A stretch of DNA of 64,000 nucleotides from Candidatus Saccharimonadota bacterium (GTDB taxonomy: Bacteria > Patescibacteriota > Saccharimonadia > Saccharimonadales > UBA10212), in NCBI GenBank assembly GCA_016187125.1, contig JACPKF010000001.1, positions 102,931-166,930 on the forward strand, read 5' to 3'. A model generated the notes under the pieces. It saw only the letters and a program-made list of their open reading frames with translations, was not told where the DNA came from and did no database searches. A program made the position numbers and the translations under genes. Positions 4,951 through 46,197 of the stretch are shown one piece after another; the first letter of the stretch is position 1, and each line of letters starts with the position of its first letter.

Positions 4951-7449
4951 TTATTCGATGGTTGTGGCGTAAGCTAGTTTTGTCTCTTTGCCTTTCAAAG
5001 ACTTCTTGGCGCTAACGGTTACGACATCACCCTTATGGTAACTATCGTCTAAGAGACCGGCAGCGATTGCATCTTCTAGTGTTTCCTGAAGCAGACGCCG
5101 CATTGGCCGGGCACCATTATGGGCATCATAACCTTGCTCCAGAAGATGTGCTTTGGCGGCTTTGTTAACTTCTAAACCAATACCTTTTTTAACAAGACGC
5201 GAACGCAGATCATCTAGCTGCAGATCTAAAATCCTTAAGGCGTCTTTTCTGGTCAGTGCCCGAAAAACTATAACCTTATCGATGCGGTTCAGCAGCTCCG
5301 GCCGCATCATTTTCTTAAGCTCGTCTTGGACTTTGCTTTTATTATCGGCATGCAGCGCTTCAAGGCTATTTAGATCCGTTAGTTTATCAGCGCCAAAACC
5401 GAAACTGGCTTCTTTTTGAAGTTTTTCGGCGCCAATATTGCTAGTCATTATGACGATGGTATTGGTAAAGTCGATCTTACGACCCTTGGCGTCAGATAGC
5501 ACACCATCCTCCAGAATTTGCAAGAGCATATTAAAGACTTCAGGGTGGGCTTTTTCGATCTCGTCAAATAGCACAACACTATATGGTTGGCGGCGAATTT
5601 TATCGGTGAGTTGTCCGCCGTCATCATAGCCGACGTAGCCGGCCGGAGCACCAATTAGTCGAGCGACAGTGTGGTGCTCGCCGAATTCACTCATATCAAT
5701 CTTAACCAGCGTTTCTTCGCTGCCGAAGAATTCACGAGCCAGCACACGCCCCAGTTCGGTTTTACCAACACCAGTCGGGCCAAGGAATATGAATGAACCG
5801 ATGGGACGCTTTTCGCTGGAAATACCGCTGCGGCTACGCCTGACTGCACGAGCTACGGTTTCTACGGCTTCCTGCTGGCCGATAATATATTTACCAAGAT
5901 TTTTTTCTAGGTTGACCAAGTACTTTGCCTCGCTACGAACAACTTTGGTAACCGGAACACCAGTCATTCGGGCGACTGTTTCAGCAACATCCTCAACCGA
6001 GATAACTATCGGTTTGCCGGTTTTATGAGTAGTCTCAATCTGTTTTATTGCTTCAGTAATTTGGCTAGCTTGCTGTTTTTCGCGGGCCGCTTTTTCATAA
6101 TCCTCAGCGTCCACAGCATCATCTATCCTAGTGTTAACTAGCTTCAGTTCTTTTTGCATTTGCCGCAGCTCGGGCGGAGTTTTGCCTTTGTTAACTCTAA
6201 GATAGGCCGATGTTTCATCCAAAAGATCTATAGCTTTATCGGGCATAAAACGATCATTTATGTAGCGCCGGGCAAAAGCCACTGTATCGGCCAGCACCTC
6301 ATCATCGACTTTAACGCCATGAAATTCTTCATAATGCTTGCGCAATCCCTTAAGGATTGCCAGTGTCTCACTAATGGTGGTTTCTGGCACCTGCACTGGC
6401 TGGAAGCGGCGTTCTAAGGCGGCATCCTTTTCTACATAACGGGTGTAATCATCCGTAGTAGTGGCACCAATCATATGGATTTTGCCTCTAGCTAGACTCG
6501 GTTTTAGAATATTGCCGGCATCCATCGAGCCTTCGGCCGCCCCGGCACCAACAATTAGGTGTAGTTCGTCTATAAATATAATAGTGTTTTTGTCGTTTTC
6601 TAGTTCGGTTATAACTTTTTTAAGGCGGTCTTCAAACTCGCCGCGGTATTTAGTGCCGGCGATCATGCCCGCCAGATCAAGTGTCACAATCCGCCGGTCT
6701 AGCAAACTGTCAGGGACCTCTTCGTTAACGATGCGTTGGGCAATGCCCTCGACGATGGCAGTTTTACCGACCCCGGGTTCGCCAATCAAGACTGGGTTGT
6801 TTTTACTGCGCCTATTCAAAATCGTAATGACGCGTTTGATTTGGGCTTCGCGGCCGATTACCGGATCGAGTTTGCCTTGGCGGGCCAGTTCGGTAAGATC
6901 GGTACCAAAAAACTCCAGAGCCGTTTTTTTGCCGTTTTTGCCACGGCGTTTGGTGGTAGCCGAAACTCGGCCGTCTTCTTCATACTGCTGGCGGTTTAAA
7001 AACTGCTCGACTTCAGAGCTTAATCGGTCAATGTCAACGCTCATATCCCGCAGCAAAGTCGTGGCCCGAGCATTTTTCTGACTTAAAATACTGTAAAGGA
7101 CATGCTCGGTGCCACAATAGTCTTGGTTAAATTCCTGAGCGATCTCCCAAGCCATTTTAAGAGTTAGTTTAGCCGTTTCGGACAAGCCTTTGCCGCCCAT
7201 ACTAATAACCAAAGTCTTGGGGGTCAGATTAAGAGCCAGGCGAGCTCGGTCCAAATTGACACCCACACCGTCCAAAATCTTAGCGCCCATTGAACCATCT
7301 TGAGCCAACACGCCCAGCAGTAAATGCTCGGTACCGATATAAGCGCTGCCGGAGGCTCTGGCGATAGCATCGGCATGCCGCAAGCTATGCAGCGCATTGT
7401 TGGTTAAATGGCTCAAAAATTCTTGAAAGTCTGGTGATTGAGGCATCAT
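4951..7449 (-). CDS. clpC: ATP-dependent Clp protease ATP-binding subunit ClpC
   Basis: Two Clp_N repeats. Walker A motifs GEPGVGKT and GPTGVGKT. UVR-like linker (DAEDYEKAAREKQQ). ClpB/C signature throughout. Confidence 0.95.
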   Translation of the reverse strand: MMPQSPDFQEFLSHLTNNALHSLRHADAIARASGSAYIGTEHLLLGVLAQDGSMGAKILDGVGVNLDRARLALNLTPKTLVISMGGKGLSETAKLTLKMAWEIAQEFNQDYCGTEHVLYSILSQKNARATTLLRDMSVDIDRLSSEVEQFLNRQQYEEDGRVSATTKRRGKNGKKTALEFFGTDLTELARQGKLDPVIGREAQIKRVITILNRRSKNNPVLIGEPGVGKTAIVEGIAQRIVNEEVPDSLLDRRIVTLDLAGMIAGTKYRGEFEDRLKKVITELENDKNTIIFIDELHLIVGAGAAEGSMDAGNILKPSLARGKIHMIGATTTDDYTRYVEKDAALERRFQPVQVPETTISETLAILKGLRKHYEEFHGVKVDDEVLADTVAFARRYINDRFMPDKAIDLLDETSAYLRVNKGKTPPELRQMQKELKLVNTRIDDAVDAEDYEKAAREKQQASQITEAIKQIETTHKTGKPIVISVEDVAETVARMTGVPVTKVVRSEAKYLVNLEKNLGKYIIGQQEAVETVARAVRRSRSGISSEKRPIGSFIFLGPTGVGKTELGRVLAREFFGSEETLVKIDMSEFGEHHTVARLIGAPAGYVGYDDGGQLTDKIRRQPYSVVLFDEIEKAHPEVFNMLLQILEDGVLSDAKGRKIDFTNTIVIMTSNIGAEKLQKEASFGFGADKLTDLNSLEALHADNKSKVQDELKKMMRPELLNRIDKVIVFRALTRKDALRILDLQLDDLRSRLVKKGIGLEVNKAAKAHLLEQGYDAHNGARPMRRLLQETLEDAIAAGLLDDSYHKGDVVTVSAKKSLKGKETKLAYATTIE

Positions 7450-7452
7450 GGC

Positions 7453-7540
7453 GGCTTCGCCTTATGAGACAAAACCAGATGGTTTTTTCTCATCGCGCCG
7501 GGTGCGGAATAAATCCGACACTCGGGCTGCTCTTTTTCCT
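7453..7540 (+). repeat. Modular intergenic element R1, copy 1, in the clpC leader and antisense to clpC
   Basis: GCTTCGCCTTATGAGACA, hairpin (gagacaaaacc/ggttttttctc), ATCGCGCCGG, hairpin (gtgcgga ataaa tccgacac), TCGGGCTGC, then a T-rich tail. The 40-nt core is 38/40 identical to 16374-16413. Confidence 0.75.
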
Positions 7541-7620
7541 TTCTTAACAAAAAACTTAAATTTTTTAGCTGTTGGCCTAGGTGCTGTTAGCTGATAGCTA
7601 TCTGCTAACCGCTAAGAGCT

Positions 7621-7660
7621 ATTGTATCACAAGTTGGCACTCACACGTCAAGAGTGCCAA
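7621..7660 (-). promoter_or_regulatory. Putative clpC promoter overlapped by a CIRCE-like inverted repeat
   Basis: TTGGCACTC (7634-7642), N9, GAGTGCCAA (7652-7660), against the CIRCE consensus TTAGCACTC-N9-GAGTGCTAA. On the minus strand TTGACG lies in the spacer, followed by an extended -10 TGaTACAAT (7621-7626). Confidence 0.5.
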
Positions 7661-7671
7661 AAAACACCCCT

Positions 7672-7740
7672 GGTGTTTCAATTTTCAGTCTCCAATTTCC
7701 AATTTCCATTAAATTATCAATGATCCAATAAAAACAATTA
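7672..7740. repeat. AT-rich short-period repeat block related to the gat spacer
   Basis: caattttcagtctccaatttccaatttccattaaattatcaatgatccaat resembles 23620-23680 (cagttttcaattttcaataatttatcattgatcaatt). Confidence 0.5.
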
Positions 7741-7911
7741 CTCTATATCCCGGCCGCGCTTAGCTGCTGCCTCCCAGTCACCTGGAGTCGCAGTAGCGCC
7801 ATATAATTCATCTATTTCCCTAAAGTGCTTTTTTAATTTATAGAAGTGCAAATAGGCAAAAAATATCCGGGTATCTGGTGAGCCCTGATCTTATTTAATT
7901 ACTGTGCGAGT

Positions 7912-8095
7912 CCCTAGTTTTTCCGAGCATCGGAGTCAACCTGAGTAGATGTTGTTTTAAAACAGGCGGCCTTGGGTGCGAGAGCTGTCTGACGAGTAAA
8001 GTTGCTTAAGAGCAAGTTTACGAGGAGTTCTTGAGCAAGCCTGTTTTAGACAACAGATACATCTATGTTGGCGAGGCGGTCGGAAAAAATAGGGC
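7912..8095. ncRNA. Candidate structured RNA: about 185-nt extended imperfect hairpin with 6S-like architecture
   Basis: Closing stem ccctagtttttccga / tcggaaaaaataggg. Middle stem tagatgttgttttaaaacaggc / gcctgttttagacaacagatacatcta. Poorly paired central region. Terminal stem-loop gtaaagttgc-ttaaga-gcaagtttac. Starts right after the nusA stop. Confidence 0.3.
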
Positions 8096-8098
8096 GAG

Positions 8099-15854: not shown

Positions 15855-16355
15855 ATGCAAAGCATAGTTTTGGTTGTTCATAACGTCCGCTCCGCCCACA
15901 ATGTCGGTTCTATTTTACGCAGTGCCGACGGTTTTGGTCTGGACCATGTTTATTTAACTGGCTACAGCCCATACCCTGAAACTAAAAATGATACTCGTCT
16001 GCCGCATATGGTAAAACGGGCTACGCGCCAAATTAGCAAAACGGCTCTAGGAGCCGAAAATTCAGTTAAATGGACGCACTCCGAGAATGTTTTCCAGCTG
16101 ATTAACAAACTAAAGCTGGATTTCCTGGTAATCGCCTTAGAACAAACACCTAAGGCTAAACTCTTAACAGATTTCAAAACTTCGAATAATATAGCTTTGA
16201 TTGTGGGCAGTGAAGTCGAGGGGTTGGACCGGCAAATATTAGAGATTGTGGACTTGCATCTAAAGATTCCAATGCTCGGTCAAAAAGAATCTTTCAATGT
16301 GGCGGTTGCGGCAGCCATTGCCATGCACTATTTAAGAACGGCTGGCGCCTTATAA
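15855..16355 (+). CDS. SpoU/TrmH-family RNA 2'-O-methyltransferase
   Basis: VVHNVRSAHNVGSILRSADGFG ... LIVGSEVEGL ... IPMLGQKESFNVAVAAAIAM (SPOUT motifs 1-3). Confidence 0.88.
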   Translation: MQSIVLVVHNVRSAHNVGSILRSADGFGLDHVYLTGYSPYPETKNDTRLPHMVKRATRQISKTALGAENSVKWTHSENVFQLINKLKLDFLVIALEQTPKAKLLTDFKTSNNIALIVGSEVEGLDRQILEIVDLHLKIPMLGQKESFNVAVAAAIAMHYLRTAGAL

Positions 16356-16442
16356 GACACCCCTTCGGGGTTTCCTATCGCGCCGGGTGCGGAATAAATC
16401 CGACACTCGGGCTACCTTCCCGAGGATAGACAAAACACTTAT
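16356..16442 (+). repeat. Modular intergenic element R1, copy 2, bracketed by a 12-bp direct repeat
   Basis: GACACCCCTTCGGGGT hairpin, ATCGCGCCGG, gtgcggaataaatccgacac hairpin, TCGGGCTAC. GGCGCCTTATAA occurs at 16344-16355 (including the spoU stop) and again at 16443-16454. Confidence 0.8.
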
Positions 16443-16465
16443 GGCGCCTTATAATTAAACTGGAA

Positions 16466-17434
16466 ATGACCGCCAAAATAAAAAGACCGCGCCGTTCTTC
16501 AAGCCACACTCGCCCCCACCGACCAAAGGGTCTCAGCACCAGAGTCTTTGAGAGAGTTTACTGGCCCTATTTACCCCTGATTTTAGTAATTAGTCTGCTG
16601 ACAACCTTTAGTTTCCAAAATCATGTTCTGCCCTCAGCTTTTCATAACCCTATTGCCAAAGTTTTGTCTTACGCAACTCAGATGAGCGTCAAAGACTTAC
16701 TAACGGAAACTAATGACATGCGAGCTTTAAACAACGTTAGCTCCTTAAAACTGAATCAGAACTTAAACGCTGCGGCCCAAGCCAAGGCTAACGACATGGC
16801 AAAGCGTAATTATTGGAGTCATACAACCCCGGACGGCAATCAACCCTGGATCTTTGTGGCAAATCAGAATTACTCTTACCAAAAATTGGGAGAGAACTTA
16901 GCAGCCGGCTTTGGAGATTCTAAAGCTGCAGTCAAAGGTTGGATGTCGAGCGCCGGCCATCGCCAGAATTTACTTGACCCCTTATTTTCGGAGGCTGGGT
17001 TCGGCTTTGCTAACAATCCGGATTATGCCGCCAATGGCGGTCCGATGACTATTGTCGTAGCCTTTTATGGCCGACCCACCAGTGCTCCAGTTGTCGCTAC
17101 TAAAGACAACTCAACGCTTAATCTACAATCCCAAGATAAATCTCAGCCAGTTACTAGTCTTAGCGACATTCAAGGTAGCACTACTACTAAAACCACTTCT
17201 AGAGCTCAGGTCGCCCTGGCAAACTTGCCTGTAGCCGGTGTGGCTACAACAACAGTAGTGCTGCTGGCCGCAGCCGCTTTGGGTATTTGGATTGGTCGCC
17301 ATGCTCTAGCTGTCCGCAGGGCTTTAAGAAAAGGCGAAACCTACGTTGCGACACACCCTGCAGTGGACTTCAGTTTACTGGTTATTGCCGGCTTGTCGCT
17401 GTTGTTAAGCCGAGCTGCTGGTTTTATTACCTAA
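16466..17434 (+). CDS. CAP/SCP (PR-1-like) domain protein with N- and C-terminal TM segments
   Basis: AAQAKANDMAKRNYWSHTTPDG ... GENLAAGF ... AVKGWMSSAGHRQNLL ... AGFG (YkwD-like CAP motifs). Ser/Thr linker and C-terminal hydrophobic helices. Confidence 0.8.
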   Translation: MTAKIKRPRRSSSHTRPHRPKGLSTRVFERVYWPYLPLILVISLLTTFSFQNHVLPSAFHNPIAKVLSYATQMSVKDLLTETNDMRALNNVSSLKLNQNLNAAAQAKANDMAKRNYWSHTTPDGNQPWIFVANQNYSYQKLGENLAAGFGDSKAAVKGWMSSAGHRQNLLDPLFSEAGFGFANNPDYAANGGPMTIVVAFYGRPTSAPVVATKDNSTLNLQSQDKSQPVTSLSDIQGSTTTKTTSRAQVALANLPVAGVATTTVVLLAAAALGIWIGRHALAVRRALRKGETYVATHPAVDFSLLVIAGLSLLLSRAAGFIT

Positions 17435-22014: not shown

Positions 22015-22152
22015 CATCGGGGAGGGCAGCCCGACAAAATGTATTCCATTTTGCCGGCGCGATGATCGGGGTCCCCATGAAATAAATTTCATGGGGTAAG
22101 GTAGGAAATTCACGATGCGAGGTGTCTTATAGGGCGGAGCGAGAGCGGAGCC
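22015..22152 (-). repeat. Modular intergenic element R1, copy 4 (variant hairpins)
   Basis: Minus strand: CCCTATAAGACACC, hairpin (ccccatgaaat ttat ttcatgggg), ATCGCGCCGG, hairpin (caaaatg gaata cattttg), TCGGGCTGCC. Begins about 3 nt after the gatB stop. Confidence 0.7.
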
Positions 22153-22154
22153 GT

Positions 22155-23603
22155 TTACAAACCAAGTTGTTTTTTAATAAGCTTTTTAGCAATTTCTGGA
22201 TTGGCTTGACCCTTGCTTTTAGCCATAACCTGACCGACTAAAAAGCCGATGGCTTTTAGCTCACCGTTTTTGACGTCTTGGGCAGGTTTGGGATTCTCGG
22301 CTATAACTTCAGCGACGATTTTCTCAATTTCAGCCTCATCAGAAACTTGCAGCCAATCTCTTATTCTGGCAATCTCATTAGGATCTCCGCCGACGACAAC
22401 AATCTCGAACACTATATTTTTAGCTGTAGTTGAGTTTATTTTGTTGTCATCTAGCATATGCGAGACCATCGTTAGAGCTTTTTCACTTAGTTTTGCGGTA
22501 TCCCAACTAATTTTTCCTAGATTAACTAGTGACTGAACATCTATTGCTAGCCAGTTTGCAATTCTTCTAGCGTCTTTTATCGAGATGTATTTATTTGCCA
22601 TTATCCTAGACATAAAACTACTAACTTGCGGGTTATCAAGAAGTGATTCAATTAGGCCCTGAGGGAGGTCTAATTTTTCAAACTTCATCCTTAAATCATT
22701 TGGTAGAGAAGGCATTTTAGTCTTAGTTTTCTTTATATAGTCATCATCGAGCTCTATAGGTGGGATGTCCGGCTCGGGCATGTAGCGATAATCCTGGGCC
22801 TCCTCTTTGCTACGCTGGGCAAGACTTTTTTGTTTGGCTTCGTCCCAACCGCGGGTTTCTTGGACAACTGGTTGGCCTTTTTTTTGTAGCTCGGTTTGAC
22901 GCTTGATTTCATAATCAACTGCCGCTTCGACGCTGCGGAAACTATTTAGATTTTTAATTTCGCTGCGTATGCCTAGCCTGTCCGGATTTTCACTAACACT
23001 GACATTAACATCAAACCGCACGTGTCCGTGGTAGAGATCTCCGTCCGTCACCCCAGCGTATTTCATGGCTAGCCAAAGCTCCCGAGCGTAAGCCTTAGCT
23101 TCGGCGGCACTATGGATATCCGGCATACTAACGATTTCCAGTAGCGGCGTTCCAGCTCGGTTAAAATCAACTAAGGAATAATCTGCACCAGCTGGATGGG
23201 TATTTTTGCCAGCGTCCTCTTCCAGATTAGCCCGCTCGATCCTAACGCATTTTTTAGTGCCATTAACTTCAATATGCAAGTGGCCACCGGCAATAATCGG
23301 CGTCTCATATTGAGTAATCTGATAACCTTTTGGCAAATCCGGATAGAAGTAGTGTTTACGTTCAAAATAACTAAACTTCTGAGGTTCAGTCCCAAGGGCA
23401 ACCGCCGCCCTGGCGCAAAGTTCGATAGCGGCTTCATTGAGTACTGGCAGAGCGCCCGGCATACCGACACAGATATGACTAATAAGTGTATTTGGCGGCG
23501 CCTGACGGGCGTCATTGTCAACAGCCGCGAATAACTTAGTTTTGGTTTTAAGCTGGACGTGAGTTTCGATACCAATCGTCGGCGTGTATTCGCTAACTCT
23601 CAT
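22155..23603 (-). CDS. gatB: Asp/Glu-tRNA amidotransferase subunit B
   Basis: GIETHVQLKT...MPGALPVLN, FDVNVS, GatB/YqeY C-terminal domain. ATG at 23603 has GGAGG 7 nt upstream, so it is preferred over 23615. Confidence 0.95.
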   Translation of the reverse strand: MRVSEYTPTIGIETHVQLKTKTKLFAAVDNDARQAPPNTLISHICVGMPGALPVLNEAAIELCARAAVALGTEPQKFSYFERKHYFYPDLPKGYQITQYETPIIAGGHLHIEVNGTKKCVRIERANLEEDAGKNTHPAGADYSLVDFNRAGTPLLEIVSMPDIHSAAEAKAYARELWLAMKYAGVTDGDLYHGHVRFDVNVSVSENPDRLGIRSEIKNLNSFRSVEAAVDYEIKRQTELQKKGQPVVQETRGWDEAKQKSLAQRSKEEAQDYRYMPEPDIPPIELDDDYIKKTKTKMPSLPNDLRMKFEKLDLPQGLIESLLDNPQVSSFMSRIMANKYISIKDARRIANWLAIDVQSLVNLGKISWDTAKLSEKALTMVSHMLDDNKINSTTAKNIVFEIVVVGGDPNEIARIRDWLQVSDEAEIEKIVAEVIAENPKPAQDVKNGELKAIGFLVGQVMAKSKGQANPEIAKKLIKKQLGL

Positions 23604-36844: not shown

Positions 36845-37289
36845 CAGAAAATGGAGTTTCCAGCCACAGTTTTATTACAGACTTCATTTCTTCTAAGGTG
36901 ACGTAAGAGGCGGCCAAACTTAACATGTTGGCGTCATTGTGCTCCCGCGTCCGGCGAACAATTTCATAAGGGTTATGGCTAACTTCGCCACTAGCATCGA
37001 CGACTCCTTTGGGAACTGCCGGACCGTAAAATACCCCGCAGCGTACTCCTTTAATCCGGTTAGCGGCCATGGCTTCGCCTTGTCCACTGCGTCCCAAAAT
37101 TATCCCAAATGGGCATTCGCCGCTGGCTACGGCCCTAGCCGCCGGAATCACAAAATCCGGATAGTCATCGGCCGGGTCCAGTGATTTGGGACCGAAATCA
37201 TGTACCTCATGGCCAAGCGACTCTAAATAACTTTTTAGCTCTTTGAGTTGCTCAAAACCGGCGTGGTCAGTAGCCAAAGCTATGTTCAT
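36795..37289 (-). CDS. rpiB: Ribose-5-phosphate isomerase B
   Basis: MNIALATDHAGFEQLKELKSYLESLGHEVHDFG and GILGRSGQGEAMAANR (RpiB/LacAB family). Confidence 0.92.
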   Translation of the reverse strand: MNIALATDHAGFEQLKELKSYLESLGHEVHDFGPKSLDPADDYPDFVIPAARAVASGECPFGIILGRSGQGEAMAANRIKGVRCGVFYGPAVPKGVVDASGEVSHNPYEIVRRTREHNDANMLSLAASYVTLEEMKSVIKLWLETPFSDEPRHIRRHEKLDKNS

Positions 37290-37326: not shown

Positions 37327-37531
37327 GGAAAAGACAGCCCGAGCAGCGGATTTATTCCGCCCGTTCGACCCTTTCGACAGATGCTCAGGGTCGTCCTGTC
37401 TTCGACTCCGAGGTCGCTCAGACTCGAGGAGAGGATAGTCTAAGGACAACATGTTCAGGGCGGCCTGAGCAGCAGTCGAAGGCCGTGCCGGATCAGATGA
37501 GAAAAACTCAGTTTGTCTCATAAGCGAAGCG
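37327..37531 (-). repeat. Modular intergenic element R1, copy 3, carrying an extra insert of about 130 bp
   Basis: Minus strand: GCGCTTCGCTTATGAGACA, hairpin (gagacaaact/agtttttctc), a 130-bp ttcgac/gctcag-rich segment, GCGGAATAAATCCGC, TGCTCGGGCTGTCTTTTCC. Starts at the gap stop codon. Confidence 0.7.
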
Positions 37532-38863
37532 CTAATAACGGCGATAGCCCTCCAATTTAGTACCGCTGCTGACGCTAGGCTCAGACGAGGTATTGGCGCT
37601 GGGATCTAGGGGTTTATCTTGCCTTGGCTGATCAGTAGCAGCCCCACCTATAATGTCTGGTGGAGCCAATAATTCTTCTGGCTCAGGGGCTTCGAGCAAA
37701 GGCTCATCATAAGTTACAGGTACCAGAGTTGGGGACTGAGGTGGGGCCTTTTTTGACATAGGCTGATCCTCCACTGGCTGGCCTTTAGACTCAGCTTCTT
37801 GGAGCAGCCTCCCAACGTCGGCGGTCATTTCCACTAAACGGTTGGAGTATCCCCATTCATTGTCATACCAAGCTATAACTTTGACCATATTACCGGCCGC
37901 TACTTTAGTTAAGCCAAGATCAACAATCGCCGAGTGACTGTTGCCTATAAAGTCGCTGCTAACCAACTCATCCTCTGTGACATCCAAAATTCCTTGGTAA
38001 AAAGGCTCAGCAGCGGCTTTTTTAAAAGCCTGATTGACTTCGTCAACCGTCACATCACGCTTGGTAATAACCACCAGATCAATTAGCGACACAACCGGTG
38101 TTGGTACGCGGATACTCAAGCCTTCAAATATACCTTCGACTACCGGCAGAGCTTGGGCCACTGATATTGACGCGCCAGTGGTAGTCGGCACGATGTTGCT
38201 AGCGGCGTTGCGAGCTTCGCGCAGATCTTTGGCCGGAGCATCTTGCAACCGCTGAGAGGCGGTATAGCTGTGAACCGTCGTCATCATAGCTTTCTCTACA
38301 CCAAAAGACGCTTCAATTACGGCCAAAACCGGAGCCACGCAGTTAGTCGTGCATGATCCGTTATTAATAATTTCAGCGGCGTGATCGAGCGCTTCCTCGT
38401 TAACACCTAAAACTACTGTTGCCGAACCATCGCCCTTAGCCGGAGCGCTGATAATTACCCTTTTGGCGCCGGCTGTGATGTGGGCTTTGGCTTTGGCCGG
38501 GTCGGTAAACAAGCCGGTGGATTCAATCACTACATCGACTGCCATGTCTTTCCAGGGCAGCTGGGCTGGGTCTTTTTCGGCTAGTACCCGGATTTTTTGG
38601 CCCTCGACTATCAAATTCTGCTGGTCAAAATCAACCCGGCGGGGATATTCGCCGTAGTTGCTGTCGTGTTTTAAAAGATGAGCCAGGGTCTTAGTATCGG
38701 CCAGGTCATTAACGGCCACGATTTGCAGATCGCTGCGCTCAAAAGCTATCTTGAAAGCGTTGCGGCCAATACGTCCAAAACCGTTGATGGCAATTTTGAT
38801 TTTTGCAGCGACCCCACCTTGATCCATAACAGAATTATATAACGCTTGTGTTAAGTGCGACAA
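37532..38863 (-). CDS. gap: Glyceraldehyde-3-phosphate dehydrogenase with about 90-aa Pro/Glu-rich C-terminal extension
   Basis: INGFGRIGR, SCTTNC, WYDNEWGYS. The canonical fold ends near residue 352 of 443. The real start is possibly the ATG at 38827. Confidence 0.93.
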   Translation of the reverse strand: MSHLTQALYNSVMDQGGVAAKIKIAINGFGRIGRNAFKIAFERSDLQIVAVNDLADTKTLAHLLKHDSNYGEYPRRVDFDQQNLIVEGQKIRVLAEKDPAQLPWKDMAVDVVIESTGLFTDPAKAKAHITAGAKRVIISAPAKGDGSATVVLGVNEEALDHAAEIINNGSCTTNCVAPVLAVIEASFGVEKAMMTTVHSYTASQRLQDAPAKDLREARNAASNIVPTTTGASISVAQALPVVEGIFEGLSIRVPTPVVSLIDLVVITKRDVTVDEVNQAFKKAAAEPFYQGILDVTEDELVSSDFIGNSHSAIVDLGLTKVAAGNMVKVIAWYDNEWGYSNRLVEMTADVGRLLQEAESKGQPVEDQPMSKKAPPQSPTLVPVTYDEPLLEAPEPEELLAPPDIIGGAATDQPRQDKPLDPSANTSSEPSVSSGTKLEGYRRY

Positions 38864-43228: not shown

Positions 43229-45757
43229 TCATACTCTTTCCGCCTTAAATTTTACTTTGGCAGCGGCCGCTACCTTATCAAGTAGCGTGTTAACTTCGGC
43301 GGTAGTTAAGGTCCTATCTGGATGAGCGATGACTACGTGCCAGGTTGTTTGTTTGAGCTTTTTATCACCCGGCTTTTGGTAAATATCCAGAGTTCGCAGC
43401 CAGTGTGTATAACCATGTCCCTTAGAAAGATCGCCAAGAGACTTTAGTATAAAATCCGTCAGTTGGCTGTAGCCAAGATTGATACTTGTCCGCAAACATA
43501 AGTCTTGCTCCACGCTTGGGAAGCGGTTCAGTGAATAGTATGTTGGTGGTTGAGTTTGCATCAACAAAGCATTTATATCGATCTCGGCTTGCGCCGTGAA
43601 GCTAGGCAATTTAAGTATTTGTTTCAGAACTTGAGTCGGTTCGCCGACAAGGCCAATAACTTCATCTTTATGGTAGATGATGGCGCTGCGTTTAGGTTCA
43701 TAAGCTTGGGCCGTCACCTTCCATTGTTTATCTAATTTACTGTCTATAGGTTCATAACGAATTTTGTAGATTCCGATCCCATGTAATAGATTCTCTAGCT
43801 GTTTCTTGGCCGCAAAATATGGCGCTCCTTCTTCTTGGTTCGAATAGTTCTTGGTTGCGACCAAAGCCAGTCTATCTAACTCCTTTGGCAGTTTTTCTTC
43901 GTCGAGAACCCCCTTTATGTGGGTCCGGCCAAGTTCAAAAAGCACAAATTTATCAAAACCTTCCTTGACGTTGGTATGAATTTTTTCCAGCAGGCTCGGT
44001 GCCAGACTCAGACGGTAATATTGTAAGTCCGGGCTCAGCGCATTTCTAATATGGTAAGCGTCCTTGGTGTTTTGGCCGGCTTTTTGGATTAGTGAACTAT
44101 CAACAAAACTATAGGTCAGGACCTCGTTGGCTCCAGCCGAAGACAGTATTTGTCTAATTTTATTTTTAAAAACTAGGCTTTGATTTAGTTTTGCCGGGCT
44201 ATGATCCCGAGTTGGCAGCTTTAGTGGCAGATGATCATAGCCGTAGAGTCGGCCGATTTCTTCGACTATATCTTCGGGAATTACAATGTCTGTTCGCCAA
44301 AATGGTGCGATGATTCGCAGAGAGTCATCACTGCCTATTTCAACTTTGAATTCGACATTTTCTAATAGTTGTTTAGTTTGAGTAGCTGAAAGATTGAGTC
44401 CAAGTCGATCATTGATAAAGCCTAGTTTTGTTTTCACCTGAGATGGTGGAGCCAATTTGCTTTTGAGGTCGTAAACACTGCGGGCCGGCAGACCACCGCT
44501 TTCGTGAATCACAAAATCTATTGCCCTGGCCAACACCCGATCGTTCTGCCATGGCGATTGGTTTTTAGTAAAGCGCGTGGCAGCATCTGTAAATAAGCCG
44601 TGGGTCATAGCTGTTTTACGCGTCGCATTCATGTCAAAATTACCGACTTCCAAAATGATATTTTTGGTATTTTCATCGACTTCCGTATCGGCCCCGCCCA
44701 TAACACCACCAAGCCCAAGAACTAGTCTGTCAGTAGCGATAACTACTTCTTGGCCGCCCAGAGTAACTTCTTTGCCGCCTAAGATTTTAAGCTTTTCGCC
44801 CCTTCGAGCCATCCGGACTGTAATCTGGGCTTTGCTAGTAGCGCTCAGAGCTTTTACTTTATCGTAATCATAGGCATGCAGCGGCTGGGCAGTCTCCAGC
44901 ATTAAATAGTTGGTGATATCAACAATGTTGTTGATGGGACGCACAGCAACGCGCGCTAGAGCGGCTTGGATACCCAAGGACGAAGGACCAACTTTGACAT
45001 TCTTGACTATCTGCATCATAAAGCGTGGTACTAACATTGGTACTTGGTTTTTTACACTCAACAGTTGGTTATCTGTTTTATGTGTGCTGATTGTTTTATC
45101 ACCTAAATACCAATTCGGGGAGCGAAAAACCATGCCCTGGATGCCCGCCAGTTCGCGGGCAATGCCAAGCATACCGAAGCAGTCCGGGCGGTGGGTGAAC
45201 ATCTTGTTTTCGATGTCGATGATGTAATCATCAAGCCCGTAGACTTCGGCGAAAGGTTGGCCCGGTTTGGCCGGTTGGTCAATTACCAAAATGCCGGTGT
45301 GATCGTCACCGAGACTCAGTTCTTTCAAACTGGCGATCATACCGTTACTGACTTTGCCACGAATTTCTCTGGCCTCCAGCACCATCGGGTCTTTATCGAT
45401 CGTGACTGGAACTGTCTGACCGGGCGGGATCCAAGCTACCATTTGGCCAGCTTTGACATTCGGAGCTCCACAGACTACCTGTACCAAACCCTTACTGTCG
45501 TGCCTAACTTTTTTTACTACACCACCGTCGTCAATCATACAGACACTTAACTTGTCGGCATTGGGGTGTTTTTCACAACTCACAACCTTAGCCACGACAA
45601 CGCCTCGATATTTTTTTCCGACATCAACAACTTCTTCAACCGCGCCCAACTGGGAGCCAATTTTTTCAACTAAAGCATCAATGCCTTTTGGCATCGGATC
45701 TGCCGAACATTGGTATTTTTTATTTATTTCACGAATCCAGTTAACCGAGACCTTCAT
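43229..45757 (-). CDS. pheT: Phenylalanine--tRNA ligase beta subunit
   Basis: tRNA-binding OB domain (HPNADKLSVC), B3/4 and B5 domains, FDX-ACB C-terminal domain. 842 aa. Confidence 0.95.
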   Translation of the reverse strand: MKVSVNWIREINKKYQCSADPMPKGIDALVEKIGSQLGAVEEVVDVGKKYRGVVVAKVVSCEKHPNADKLSVCMIDDGGVVKKVRHDSKGLVQVVCGAPNVKAGQMVAWIPPGQTVPVTIDKDPMVLEAREIRGKVSNGMIASLKELSLGDDHTGILVIDQPAKPGQPFAEVYGLDDYIIDIENKMFTHRPDCFGMLGIARELAGIQGMVFRSPNWYLGDKTISTHKTDNQLLSVKNQVPMLVPRFMMQIVKNVKVGPSSLGIQAALARVAVRPINNIVDITNYLMLETAQPLHAYDYDKVKALSATSKAQITVRMARRGEKLKILGGKEVTLGGQEVVIATDRLVLGLGGVMGGADTEVDENTKNIILEVGNFDMNATRKTAMTHGLFTDAATRFTKNQSPWQNDRVLARAIDFVIHESGGLPARSVYDLKSKLAPPSQVKTKLGFINDRLGLNLSATQTKQLLENVEFKVEIGSDDSLRIIAPFWRTDIVIPEDIVEEIGRLYGYDHLPLKLPTRDHSPAKLNQSLVFKNKIRQILSSAGANEVLTYSFVDSSLIQKAGQNTKDAYHIRNALSPDLQYYRLSLAPSLLEKIHTNVKEGFDKFVLFELGRTHIKGVLDEEKLPKELDRLALVATKNYSNQEEGAPYFAAKKQLENLLHGIGIYKIRYEPIDSKLDKQWKVTAQAYEPKRSAIIYHKDEVIGLVGEPTQVLKQILKLPSFTAQAEIDINALLMQTQPPTYYSLNRFPSVEQDLCLRTSINLGYSQLTDFILKSLGDLSKGHGYTHWLRTLDIYQKPGDKKLKQTTWHVVIAHPDRTLTTAEVNTLLDKVAAAAKVKFKAERV

Positions 45758-46197
45758 TCTTTGGTCTCCGTATCTCGTATCTGGTATAAGGTATTAGGTA
45801 TATTGTTTTTTGTTTTAGAAGATTTGATCAGTCCATTTATCAGCTTGTTCGTACGTTCAGAGAGAATAAACAGAGTTTCTGATTCTTTTTCATCTATATA
45901 TCCGAGGTCTGATGAAATTTTAAGCTGATTTTGTAGTTCTGTGAGCGAGCCTTGAGCCATAAAGTAGAATTGATTTTTGTTCTCTCGTGTTTTTCTTGAG
46001 AAGCCTTCCGCAAGATTTGAAGTAACAGAAACTGAAGATCTCCGCATCTGACTCACTAGATTATACTGTTCATTTTTAGGAAATTGCTTGGTTAGTTTGT
46101 ATACAACCAGTGCAAGCTCATGGCCAACTTGCCAGGCGATTAAATCCATAAAGGATTTTATTTTCTGGTTCTCTATACCTGATACTTTATACGTCAT
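45754..46197 (-). CDS. Four-helix-bundle protein (23S rRNA IVS protein / Avd-like family)
   Basis: IKSFMDLIAWQVGHELALVVYKLTKQFP ... SQMRRSSVSVTSNLAEGFSR ... FYFMAQGSLTELQNQL..DLGYI. Overlaps the pheS end by 11 nt and the pheT start by 4 nt. Confidence 0.85.
   Translation of the reverse strand: MTYKVSGIENQKIKSFMDLIAWQVGHELALVVYKLTKQFPKNEQYNLVSQMRRSSVSVTSNLAEGFSRKTRENKNQFYFMAQGSLTELQNQLKISSDLGYIDEKESETLFILSERTNKLINGLIKSSKTKNNIPNTLYQIRDTETKE

Follow-up and report, generated by a model that had tools for sequence, protein, structure and literature searches.

The spacer between spoU and a CAP-domain gene in the window (the whole 64,000-nt stretch of DNA analysed here, part of a Candidatus Saccharibacteria genome) holds two hairpins with conserved linkers, flanked by a short direct repeat, and the question is whether this is a regulatory RNA structure, a transcription terminator or an inserted element. 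The first-pass annotation had reported the same architecture at four loci. We consider it likely that the flagged sequence is one member of a small non-coding interspersed family specific to Saccharibacteria, mobile now or in the recent past. The argument for this reading is carried by the family itself, the covariation of its structure, orthologous sites that are filled in some species and empty in others, and long duplications flanking the copies. The two-hairpin repeat is previously undescribed: a literature search did not find it, Rfam 15 gave no match at gathering score in the whole window (copy 1 had no match at E<=10 and copy 4 had chance-level matches only), and phage and plasmid collections gave no match to the element. 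A pattern scan of IMG/VR returned 4 matches, all by chance and without hairpins. A TM7x transcriptome preprint reports that there are no validated small RNAs.

A search of the window with a covariance model, filters off, returned exactly 4 copies (83.7, 72.9, 41.7 and 24.2 bits), and the four loci first described are all present; the motifs TTATRAGACA, ATCGCGCCGG and TCGGGCTRY co-occur nowhere else in the window. The element is about 75-85 nt long and consists, from 5' to 3', of an optional extension with the mini-hairpin motif GSS-YTY-SSC, hairpin P1, the linker CGCGCCGG, hairpin P2, UCGGGCU and a pyrimidine tail. P1 has an AUGAGA base with a conserved C.U mismatch; in P2 the GC base, which includes a bulged G and a G.U pair, is conserved. 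The tops of both hairpins are variable. Although the two hairpins originally drawn are real and self-complementary, their limits were too narrow: hairpin 2 reaches into what had been taken for linkers, GC(G)CCGG pairing with UCGGGC, and hairpin 1 also takes in AUGAGA/UCUCAU with the C.U mismatch. The hairpins are subterminal at both ends, P1 at the 5' end and P2 at a distance of 9-12 nt from the 3' end. The termini, ATGAGACA... and ...GCTCTTTTCCC, are not mutually reverse-complementary, and the element thus lacks terminal inverted repeats. The hairpin feet carry the bases AUGAGA and GCGCCGG; the sole occurrence of GTAG is in one common P1 loop when it is read as its reverse complement. Beyond a weak preference for T(T/A) at the 5' edge, neither flank has a conserved signal. 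The features of the window are as follows.

7453-7539, plus strand: copy 1, complete (extension 7453-7463, P1 7464-7493, P2 7495-7527, tail 7528-7539); the neighbouring clpC, with its ATG at 7449, reads opposite to the element.
16338-16421, plus strand: copy 2, refined coordinates.
16338-16351, plus strand: 5' extension of copy 2, ACGGCTGGCGCCTT, with the mini-hairpin motif.
16343-16355, plus strand: left direct repeat TGGCGCCTTATAA, overlapping the spoU stop codon and the P1 base.
16352-16378, plus strand: P1, AUAAGACACCCC-UUC-GGGGUUUCCUAU, with the conserved C.U mismatch (covariance-model alignment, fold, covariation).
16379-16412, plus strand: linker and P2, base GC(G)CCGG/UCGGGC with the G.U pair, variable top GUGCGGA-AUAAA-UCCGACAC (covariance model, fold, covariation).
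16413-16421, plus strand: pyrimidine tail UACCUUCCC, mirror of the P1 3' strand (length covariation of tail and P1).
16422-16441, plus strand: filler GAGGATAGACAAAACACTTA from the tail to the second repeat.
16442-16454, plus strand: right direct repeat, overlapping the -10 box TATAAT (16450-16455).
22019-22154, minus strand: copy 3, beginning directly after the gatB stop codon (22155-22157); P1 degenerate, P2 CAAAAUG-GAAUA-CAUUUUG; then the promoter TTGGCT-17-TATAAT of a leaderless 72-aa ORF.
22064-22101, minus strand: extra 38-nt hairpin of copy 3.
37327-37533, minus strand: copy 4, its extension overlapping the gap stop codon (37532-37534); P1 intact at 37497-37521, tail 37327-37335; the rpiB start (ATG 37287-37289) is 37 nt past the tail.
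37363-37495, minus strand: 133-nt structured hairpin insertion inside P2 of copy 4.

As had been described, spoU, gatB and gap end in stop codons that adjoin or overlap the element when its 5' extension is included, and copy 1 stands antisense before clpC, reverse-complemented and 14 nt upstream of its start codon. At the spoU-CAP locus the extension encodes the final codons of SpoU/TrmH (T-A-G-A-L), and the stop codon TAA (16353-16355) lies inside P1. A matching extension (ACGGCTCCGCCTTAT) is present at the unrelated loci L122 and L035 and in copy 3 of the window. The direct repeat around copy 2, first given as 12 bp, does exist; its length is 13 nt. In shuffled pairings the longest exact flank match was 9 nt, compared to these 13 nt. 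The repeat is the remnant of an insertion or target-duplication junction, as the first-pass annotation had surmised: it fits the general pattern of target duplication with junction filler described below, and relatives are empty at this site. The filler carries a -35-like TAGACA (16427-16432) and the string AGACAAAAC, which resembles the start of P1. The CAP-domain gene is near-leaderless, with its ATG at 16466 and a promoter match of 11/12.

The first-pass annotation had proposed a covariance-model scan for further copies, and such copies exist well beyond the window. With a pattern scan and the covariance model we collected 95 copies from dozens of Saccharibacteria MAGs and from metagenomic contigs; one run of the model recovered 88 copies. 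The genome pattern scan alone gave 120 loci, about 80 with true copies, and the hosts of the true copies were all MAGs of Saccharibacteria, Saccharimonadales or Patescibacteria. In 80 lepA loci (235 kb) taken as an unbiased sample, the model found 7 copies, approximately 1 per 34 kb. The core is conserved across the entire class-level lineage with compensatory changes in the hairpins. The invariance of the linkers is partly by construction, because the majority of copies were collected with a pattern that fixed 22 bases. Gene calls at related loci were ORF-based only.

The description of a modular element with conserved linkers and covarying hairpins was borne out over this collection. Across 88 copies 96.3% of cells are paired, and we counted 296 double-sided changes as opposed to 89 in shuffles, with none of 500 shuffles reaching the observed value. 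Compensatory changes occur in L026 and L196 even in the seemingly invariant base helices, including the conserved P2 base. The fold z-scores were -5.1, -3.2 and -4.1. The covariation shows that selection acts on the hairpins in single-stranded form, either RNA or DNA. The forward strand folds more stably in 68 of the 88 copies, mostly because of one invariant G.U pair; the variable wobble pairs favour neither strand, so the wobble evidence is mixed. From the conservation of hairpins and linkers we infer that they may be recognised by a mobilising machinery. The variability of P2 excludes a conserved peptide as the explanation. An internal promoter was likewise rejected, as there is no conserved -35/-10 pair at a fixed distance in either orientation.

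A further relation connects the two ends of the element. The number of U in the tail exceeds by one the length of the A/U run of P1 (nU = nA+1) in 71 of 80 copies over four length classes, and the linkage holds within P2 classes (p<=1e-4). The mutual information amounts to 1.18 bits between P1 and tail, as against 0.16 bits when the intervening P2 is the partner. The tail reads as a mirror image of the 3' strand of P1, and P1 and P2 could therefore stack with the tail in the major groove of P1. This suggests a candidate triplex of tail and P1 (U.A-U / C+.G-C) that may form in the single-stranded form, whether RNA or ssDNA, as judged from sequence. A purine-type triplex on the reverse strand fits the P1-tail data equally well. 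In sequences read by eye, tail position 'a' is not C in 5 of the 6 copies with a G-C to A-U change, and it is U just once. In 25 of 80 copies the tail has no more than 2 U. Pure subfamily descent as an explanation of the linkage is weakened because P2, located between the two parts, is shuffled, and the matched length changes over four classes argue against it. Gene conversion confined to P2 could imitate part of the P1-tail linkage.

The comparison of orthologous loci, which had also been proposed at the outset, yielded both filled and empty sites in related species. At spoU-CAP the window, L124 and L125 carry the element, whereas L126 and L123 have an empty site. SpoU ends in RTAGAL or RTADAL in the filled genomes and in RFGA or RLGA in the empty ones. 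The 5' end of lepA is filled only in a small clade, while the other species read by eye carry ACCTCTGTTATAAT-N7-8-ATG (19 of the 80 loci were read by eye; the remainder have no upstream copy according to the covariance model). The 3' end of lepA is filled in L201, L200, L196, L187 and L026, with differing junctions, and empty in 12/12 others inspected. Young copies are flanked by perfect repeats of 50, 48, 44 and 42 nt, and older ones by repeats of 30-56 nt with 75-97% identity. In total, target-duplication repeats flank about 15 of 87 copies, with an overall range of 13-56 nt, and the filler measures 0-19 nt towards P1 and 4-38 nt towards the tail. L026 has a tandem arrangement of repeat, element, repeat, element and repeat. 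Logan contigs with spoU terminate within the element, where the assemblies break. For the young insertion at msrA in L039, a metagenome search matched no empty allele of the same species, and the filler sequences were not found elsewhere among the collected loci.

The copies next to protein genes show little regard for position or strand. In co-directional gene pairs there are approximately 15 reverse-complement and 13 forward copies, which is about random, and the contexts comprise 5' leaders, 3' ends and the spaces between convergent and between divergent genes (13 cases of the latter). At lepA, tpiA, msrA and an iscS-like gene, forward copies separate a promoter with a start-codon stub from the real start of the gene, and reverse copies also occur upstream of clpC and tuf. 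The upstream stub ORF is open through the element in 7/7 resolvable cases, with its stop -2 to +12 nt from the real start. The tRNA-linked copies are placed differently: 25 of 26 have one orientation, reverse-complemented and upstream of the tRNA, and 23 lie inside the leader, 3-11 nt from the mature 5' end. As the tRNA promoter is upstream of the element, these copies are transcribed as part of the leader. No target duplication was seen at the approximately 26 tRNA-adjacent copies.

These tRNA-linked copies speak for a selected structured RNA acting in cis (for example a module of a tRNA or mRNA leader, of processing or of stability, or a site bound by protein) that spreads occasionally by local duplication and has its functional or source copies in tRNA leaders. 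Their shared orientation, narrow spacing, transcription and lack of target duplications would all be accommodated, as would the linkers conserved across many species, the covariation of the hairpins and of P1 with the tail, and the more stable forward strands. The same places are also occupied across species, tRNA-Arg in 4, initiator/elongator tRNA-Met in 5 and rpsF-ssb in 3. However, about half of the tRNAs in the collected loci have no element, P2 is completely different at the orthologous tRNA-Arg sites, copies at protein genes take both orientations and every position, the wobble pairs prefer neither strand, and orthologous sites in close relatives are empty without visible replacement. 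The neighbours (tRNAs, tuf, rpsF-ssb, clpC, spoU, gap, gatB, lepA, tpiA, msrA) are not functionally coherent as those of a riboswitch or cis-leader should be. We therefore judge a primarily cis-acting RNA unlikely. A portable intrinsic terminator, suggested by the first-pass annotation on account of the T-rich tract, was not supported. In its broader form, P2 and the U-rich tail would end the upstream transcript or protect its 3' end, and it is true that copies 2, 3 and 4 are sense and behind stop codons, that the promoter of the next gene directly follows copies 2 and 3, and that the GC-rich P2 base is followed by GCUGCUCUUUU. Copy 1 scores weakly as terminator-like, albeit on a partial 5-bp stem, and no such site was scored at copy 2. 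In a Rho-independent terminator the GC-rich stem-loop has a U run no more than 0-2 nt behind it, and the unit stands in sense orientation at the 3' end of transcription units; here 7 nt separate the U run from the variable stem of P2, and the run shrinks to 2 U in about a third of the copies. Hairpins of either orientation could stop 3' exonucleases, as REP hairpins do. Nonetheless, the element is found forward inside the transcribed 5' regions of lepA, tpiA, msrA and the iscS-like gene, reversed in tRNA leaders and before clpC and tuf, and between divergent genes, and a terminator strong in either orientation would be lethal at lepA-type 5' regions and tRNA leaders. Such a role is very improbable.

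Mobility by a known single-strand route was weighed as well. On this view a genome-encoded Y1 transposase of the HUH class would recognise the two imperfect hairpins on one DNA strand, and the element would be a derivative of the REP/REPIN or IS200/IS605 'PATE' type. There is a separate imperfect hairpin at each end, with conserved asymmetries (C.U mismatch, bulged G and G.T pair) and flanked by conserved single-stranded linkers. Read on the reverse strand, the 5' extension is GCGAAGC or GCGGAGC, an unusually stable DNA mini-hairpin, and copies occur close to genes with high transcription, whose DNA is often single-stranded. HUH/Y1 families insert without target duplication and with a strand bias relative to replication, whereas here the duplications are 42-56 bp and, in a region of uniform GC skew, 2 of the copies in the window are on the plus strand and 2 on the minus strand. 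Nor was a Y1 transposase present among the window proteins scanned or the recurrent neighbours, and we hold this derivation to be quite unlikely. More generally, neither a transposase nor a reverse transcriptase nor an integrase turned up among 54 window proteins scanned against Pfam, 8 of them without a family match, and no mobilising enzyme was found among the gene families recurring beside copies, which are housekeeping (EF-G/LepA/EF-Tu, MurJ, NrdR, SSB, S6, Gmk).

Returning to a mobile interspersed family, we know of no bacterial transposon with target duplications nearly as long, and no mechanism known to us fits, because the element combines very long duplications with a lack of terminal inverted repeats. 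Copies would enter very short spacers and gene ends of compact genomes, and insertion would duplicate about 40-55 bp of the target, often leaving a few to about 25 nt of junction filler. The neighbouring genes may survive because the duplication keeps one intact overlapping signal on each side. At spoU-CAP the left repeat would have retained the stop codon of spoU and the right repeat the -10 box of the next gene. At the leaderless lepA, tpiA and msrA the old start would have become that of a short upstream ORF running through the element and ending at a new start led by a Shine-Dalgarno sequence. One specific version, which we offer as a long shot, is a retroposon-like or mechanistically new unit with source copies in tRNA leaders, in which RNase P would release a leader RNA (element plus 3-11 nt), the stacked hairpins would form a triplex rod and the target strands would be cut about 45 bp apart. 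If true, this route could account for variable filler, long duplications and the lack of any transposase with matching ends.

The genomes of Saccharibacteria and of the other ultra-small CPR bacteria are viewed as streamlined and almost devoid of mobile DNA. A repeat every 16-34 kb or so that reshapes gene ends suggests ongoing genome turnover instead, and duplications of 42-56 bp with filler point to an undescribed insertion pathway. The insertions give proteins such as SpoU a new C-terminus, pull apart overlapping stop, promoter and convergent-gene signals, and appear to rewire expression by turning leaderless genes into Shine-Dalgarno-led ones behind a coupled upstream ORF. The covariation of both P1 strands with the tail provides a testable candidate for a natural nucleic-acid triplex. 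The repeat also fragments metagenomic assemblies of Saccharibacteria and is missed by annotation because no Rfam or IS model exists for it; the covariance model built here can be used to mask or annotate it.

Among known systems, miniature inverted-repeat elements have target duplications much shorter than 42-50 nt. Prokaryotic MITEs are characterised as non-coding, multi-copy and below 500 bp, with terminal inverted repeats of about 4-30 bp, target-duplication direct repeats in young copies and an autonomous IS with the same ends (PMC10969869). Like MITEs and the Correia, ERIC, RUP and BOX repeats (PMC10969869), the element is short, non-coding and multi-copy and lies within intergenic regions or at their edge. 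Its young copies have flanking direct repeats, its insertion sites are polymorphic among relatives, and it is able to change gene ends and provide expression signals. It differs in having a hairpin of its own at each end in place of terminal inverted repeats, in duplications of 42-56 bp with filler as opposed to a short fixed length, and in a core that, with compensatory changes in its hairpins, is kept throughout a class-level lineage. Neither the window proteins scanned nor the recurrent neighbours revealed an autonomous element related to it. REP/BIME/REPIN and IS200/IS605-derived elements are many-copy extragenic imperfect hairpins with conserved flanking single-stranded bases. The element shares with them its structure-conserved imperfect hairpins, extragenic location, high copy number and possible effects on mRNA stability, and with IS200/IS605 the subterminal hairpins at both ends. 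REP/REPIN and IS200/IS605-derived families do not duplicate their target, need a Y1 transposase and are strand-biased, while the element has long duplications, no strand bias in the window and no transposase found in the window proteins. It also has neither the imperfect 20-40 nt palindrome with conserved GTAG at the 5' foot of the RAYT-mobilised REP/REPIN nor the duplication-free insertion 3' of a fixed tetra- or pentanucleotide of IS200/IS605, since it duplicates 42-56 bp.

Eukaryotic SINEs are similar in being small structured units, linked to tRNA genes and dispersed in both orientations, and the element's duplications of variable length, junction filler and variable flank at one end extend the likeness. 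The element has no A-rich tail, and no reverse transcriptase was found in the window proteins scanned; to our knowledge no SINE-like retroposon is established in bacteria. In the ENE of PAN, MALAT1 and transposon RNAs, an A-rich tail is clamped between two U-rich strands. If an RNA triplex forms in the element, a 3' tail would similarly be sequestered in a hairpin major groove by U.A-U triples, although the partners would here be a pyrimidine tail and a purine-pyrimidine hairpin, and the likeness rests on length and base covariation. The Rickettsia palindromic elements (PMC10969869) belong to an unrelated lineage and are compared by description. They are about 100-150 bp long and mostly in frame inside ORFs, whereas the present element mostly adjoins gene ends and tRNAs and has long duplications. 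Both are palindromic repeats of a host-dependent bacterium with a reduced genome, and both are tolerated in or at the ends of coding regions and partly translated, here as the C-terminus of SpoU and the stub ORFs.

The R1 element is a repeat of about 75-85 nt with two hairpins, P1 and P2. It was present at all four loci of the window that the first-pass annotation had named, and three conserved strings were found together only there. The annotation had also proposed a covariance model, and we trained one on 75 related copies. With filters off, the whole window gave exactly four copies and nothing more above noise, and scans of related loci and of a LepA-fetched sample found further ones. The window copies, numbered by position, are as follows.

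7453-7539 (+): copy 1, complete
16338-16421 (+): copy 2, complete
22019-22154 (-): copy 3, P1 degenerate, with an additional 38-nt hairpin
37327-37533 (-): copy 4, P2 interrupted by a 133-nt structured insertion

Neighbouring genes are also as annotated: clpC beside copy 1, and spoU/trmH, gatB and gap beside copies 2, 3 and 4, whose extensions hold or abut the ends of these three genes respectively. Copy 1 precedes the clpC ATG by 14 nt, in reverse-complement orientation. The extra hairpin of copy 3, CCCCAUGAAAU-UUAU-UUCAUGGGG (22064-22101, -), is perfect and lies between the degenerate P1 and the linker; the P1 variant of this copy, beginning CCTCGCATCG, was seen again in two related loci (L058, L124). 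The insertion inside P2 of copy 4 (37363-37495, -) folds into a long imperfect hairpin, and no second copy of it was found in the window or related loci, nor any Rfam match. The whole of copy 4 has a folding energy of -80 kcal/mol (z = -3.5). The adjacent GAPDH gene (37532-38863, -) encodes 443 aa; Pfam domains stop at residue 333, and a C-terminal extension of about 110 residues reaches to copy 4. Between nusA and copy 1/clpC, a stretch of about 550 nt (7545-8098) shows neither an ORF of at least 80 aa nor a promoter-like site or Rfam hit.

From 5' to 3', the element consists of an optional 5' extension (GGCTTCGCCTT, GCGCTTCGCTT or ACGGCTSSCGCCTT, with a 3-bp mini-hairpin), P1 (AUGAGA followed by a conserved C.U mismatch and an A-U pair, with a variable top and its loop above them), the linker CGCGCCGG, P2, and a UGCUCUUUUCCC-like tail. 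At its base P2 is conserved (GC(G)CCGG/UCGGGC, including a G.U pair and a bulged G), and above this it has a variable 7-9 bp top in several versions unrelated to one another:

CAAAAUG-GAAUA-CAUUUUG
GCAAAAA-N6-UUUUUGC
GYGCGGA-AURAA-UCCGNCRC
GCUUUGG-CAAA-GCCAAAG

The conserved linkers and covarying hairpins reported from the first reading held up, the invariance of the linkers being partly built in because the search pattern for most copies fixed 22 bases. Paired cells made up 96.3% compared with 79.6% in shuffles, and double-sided changes numbered 296 compared with 89, a value reached in none of 500 shuffles; both hairpins are strongly supported, and the pairing collapses in slid controls. Among copies collected without the pattern, the seemingly invariant helices carry compensatory changes:

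L026: CUGAGA/UCUCAG in P1; CGCGCGGG/UCCGGC in P2
L196: UUGAGA/UCUCAA in P1; AU(G)CCGG/UCGGAU in P2

Window copies are much more stable than shuffles: forward-strand folding z values were -5.1, -3.2 and -4.1, and reverse-strand values -3.7, -2.7 and -1.9. Of 88 copies, 68 have the more stable fold on the forward strand, mostly owing to one invariant G.U pair. Variable wobble pairs show no preference for the forward strand, and the A.C found in P1 of 8 copies would read G.U on the reverse strand.

A pattern scan with one genome per species gave at least 120 loci, and about 80 of the 120 listed are true copies; the others are GC-rich chance matches that lack hairpins. Except for one contig labelled 'Binatia', all true copies among the listed loci belong to Saccharibacteria, Saccharimonadales or Patescibacteria MAGs. 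The covariance model, whose E-values are rough, recovered 88 copies in 78 sources, some outside the pattern. An unbiased sample of 80 metagenomic loci retrieved via LepA (235 kb) held 7 copies, or about 1 per 34 kb, compared with 1 per 16 kb in the window. Nothing similar was found in phage, plasmid and viral collections, and a literature search found no description of the element. Tandem or clustered elements were seen at L026 (66-275), L059 (3123-3389, two element-tRNA-Pro units in succession), L188 (887-1192) and L018 (three copies in 8 kb).

The element behaves as inserted DNA. At the spoU-CAP locus of copy 2, comparison of orthologous loci showed it present in some relatives and absent in others: L124 and L125 are filled at the window's position, and in L126 (SpoU 78% identical) and L123 spoU is followed by 28-29 nt with TATAAT and then the CAP gene ATG. 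SpoU ends in RTAGAL or RTADAL where the site is filled and in RFGA or RLGA where it is empty, and its final codons in filled genomes derive from the 5' extension of the element, found at unrelated loci too. Contigs with spoU break off inside the element, as is typical of a repeat. The window SpoU itself has a 100% identical counterpart at NCBI, a protein labelled 'Candidatus Saccharibacteria bacterium' and encoded on a 397-kb contig.

The direct repeat annotated here is real and measures 13 nt rather than 12 (TGGCGCCTTATAA, 16343-16355 and 16442-16454). The left one contains the spoU stop codon and the right one the CAP gene -10 box. It had been read as a target duplication or recombination scar; judged by the signals it carries, it is the remnant of a junction like those of the duplications around other insertions. 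Since the left repeat coincides in part with the 5' extension of the element itself, the origin of the right one is ambiguous: either the target was truly duplicated, or a second, partial extension was joined on at TTATAA microhomology. The filler between element and right repeat (16422-16441) holds ATAGACAAAAC, which is similar to the P1 start of copy 1 (ATGAGACAAAACC) and provides the -35 box of the downstream promoter; this filler may be a piece of a second element.

Elsewhere, long direct repeats of target flank about 15 of 87 copies, neighbouring-tRNA pairs excluded. The perfect ones are:

L037: 50 nt
L035: 48 nt
L039: 44 nt
L201: 42 nt

Older repeats are 30-56 nt at 75-97% identity, with 0-19 nt of filler next to P1 and 4-38 nt next to the tail. 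The lepA 3' end is filled in L201, L196, L200, L187 and L026, where repeat boundaries, filler and P2 are not the same, and empty in all 12 further species inspected; L026 carries two tandem copies and three repeats in alternation. The lepA 5' end is filled in a small clade only (L008, L070, L102, L078, L046, L188, L138), and the model found no upstream copy at the remaining lepA loci. By eye, 19 empty 5' loci have a TATAAT-like -10 box a few nt upstream of the start codon, in most cases preceded by CCTCTG, which implies a leaderless or near-leaderless mRNA.

In the leaderless genes lepA, tpiA, msrA and an iscS-like gene, the left repeat begins with the old ATG, downstream of the old promoter, and the right repeat forms the actual start of the gene, with a Shine-Dalgarno in the filler before it. 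From the old start an ORF of 44-51 codons is open across the element in 7/7 resolvable cases, and in all seven its stop lies between -2 and +12 nt relative to the new start, with overlaps of the forms GTGA, TAATG and TTGA; the arrangement looks like translational coupling. In L037 the duplication covers the sequence shared by two convergent genes, in L086 the overlap of divergent starts, and in L035, L081, L103 and at the lepA 3' end the last codons of the gene; at each of these the neighbour genes retain an intact copy after insertion.

Many insertion sites lie beside highly expressed genes. Reverse-complemented copies recur across species, directly upstream of tuf in the fusA-tuf spacer (L017, L113) and in the rpsF-ssb spacer (L064, L105, L112). 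Upstream of lepA (about 10-25 nt; L131, L132, L134, L136, L137, L141, L149, L179 and others) there is a conserved promoter-proximal motif; (A)CCTCTGTTATAAT stands 7-8 nt before the ATG, implying an extended -10 promoter and a leaderless mRNA, and some species have CCTCTGTTATTT-N4-TATAAT as an alternative. A related TACCCCTGTT follows the -10 box in tRNA promoters (L033, L043, L050, L059, L071). Leaderless or near-leaderless starts in the window include the CAP gene ATG (16466) and a 72-aa ORF ATG (21966).

The portable intrinsic terminator suggested by the annotation is not supported. The scan found no terminator-like site at copy 2, where an 11/12 promoter (TAGACA-17-TATAAT, 16427-16455) serves the CAP-domain gene, and orientation near protein genes is mixed: by ORF-based gene calls, about 15 reverse-complement and about 13 forward copies lie between co-directional protein genes, 13 in divergent and 8 in convergent spacers. 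Such a context speaks against both a terminator and any single cis-regulatory function. The main rival to a mobile element, less probable, would be a structured RNA under selection, acting as leader or in processing and centred on tRNA genes. Among tRNA-linked copies, 25 of 26 are reverse-complemented and upstream of the tRNA, 23 of them at 3-11 nt from its 5' end; in several inspected cases the element is itself preceded, 15-70 nt away, by a promoter-like TAnAAT-TACCCCTGTT, so that the reverse strand would be transcribed as a tRNA leader. In these loci the element is missing from about half of the tRNAs. The two readings can be combined as a mobile element with tRNA-leader copies as its sources.

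P1 and the tail change together. The numbers of A following GAGAC on the 5' side of P1, of U in the run on its 3' side and of U in the tail run occur as (1,3,2), (2,4,3), (3,5,4) and (4,6,5), and the tail U run is one longer than the A run in 71 of 80 copies; with tails shuffled within P2 classes, conforming copies averaged 32 and never exceeded 47 (p<=1e-4). Mutual information is 1.18 bits between P1 and tail and 0.16 bits between either and the intervening P2 class. Gene conversion confined to P2 could account for the shuffling of P2, but it leaves the matched length changes of P1 and tail unexplained. In the 5' to 3' direction the tail mirrors the 3' strand of P1. Watson-Crick pairing of the tail with P1 is impossible; the tail exactly matches what a third strand of pyrimidines (U.A-U, C+.G-C) would be if it lay parallel to the purine strand, and its exit from P2 at the P1/P2 junction has a suitable direction. 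Single-base changes conform in part: where a P1 G-C has become A-U the matching tail position is no longer C in 5 of 6 copies (the expected U once), and a U-to-C change on the 3' side of P1 in window copy 2 has its mirror counterpart in the tail. We infer from these patterns that the tail may form a triplex with P1 in a single-stranded form, in which it would need to skip the C.U mismatch; a purine-type triplex of the reverse strand fits equally well. On the reading as a mobile element, the hairpins, conserved linkers and mirror tail would reflect a folded single-stranded form recognised or used in mobilisation.

A 147-aa '23S rRNA intervening sequence protein' (PF05635) is encoded between pheS and pheT (45754-46197, -). 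Among the members of this four-helix-bundle family are accessory proteins of diversity-generating retroelements, and near the gene there is no reverse transcriptase. Neither the 54 window proteins scanned nor the recurrent neighbours of the element include a transposase, reverse transcriptase or integrase.

Compared with known systems, the element is not supported as a terminator, and the Rfam search of the window matched it to no family. It lacks the terminal inverted repeats by which MITEs are defined (PMC10969869), falls outside the definition of REP elements, and is separated from IS200/IS605-type elements by its long duplications. The best-supported reading is a new Saccharibacteria-specific family of small non-autonomous elements, mobile or recently mobile.
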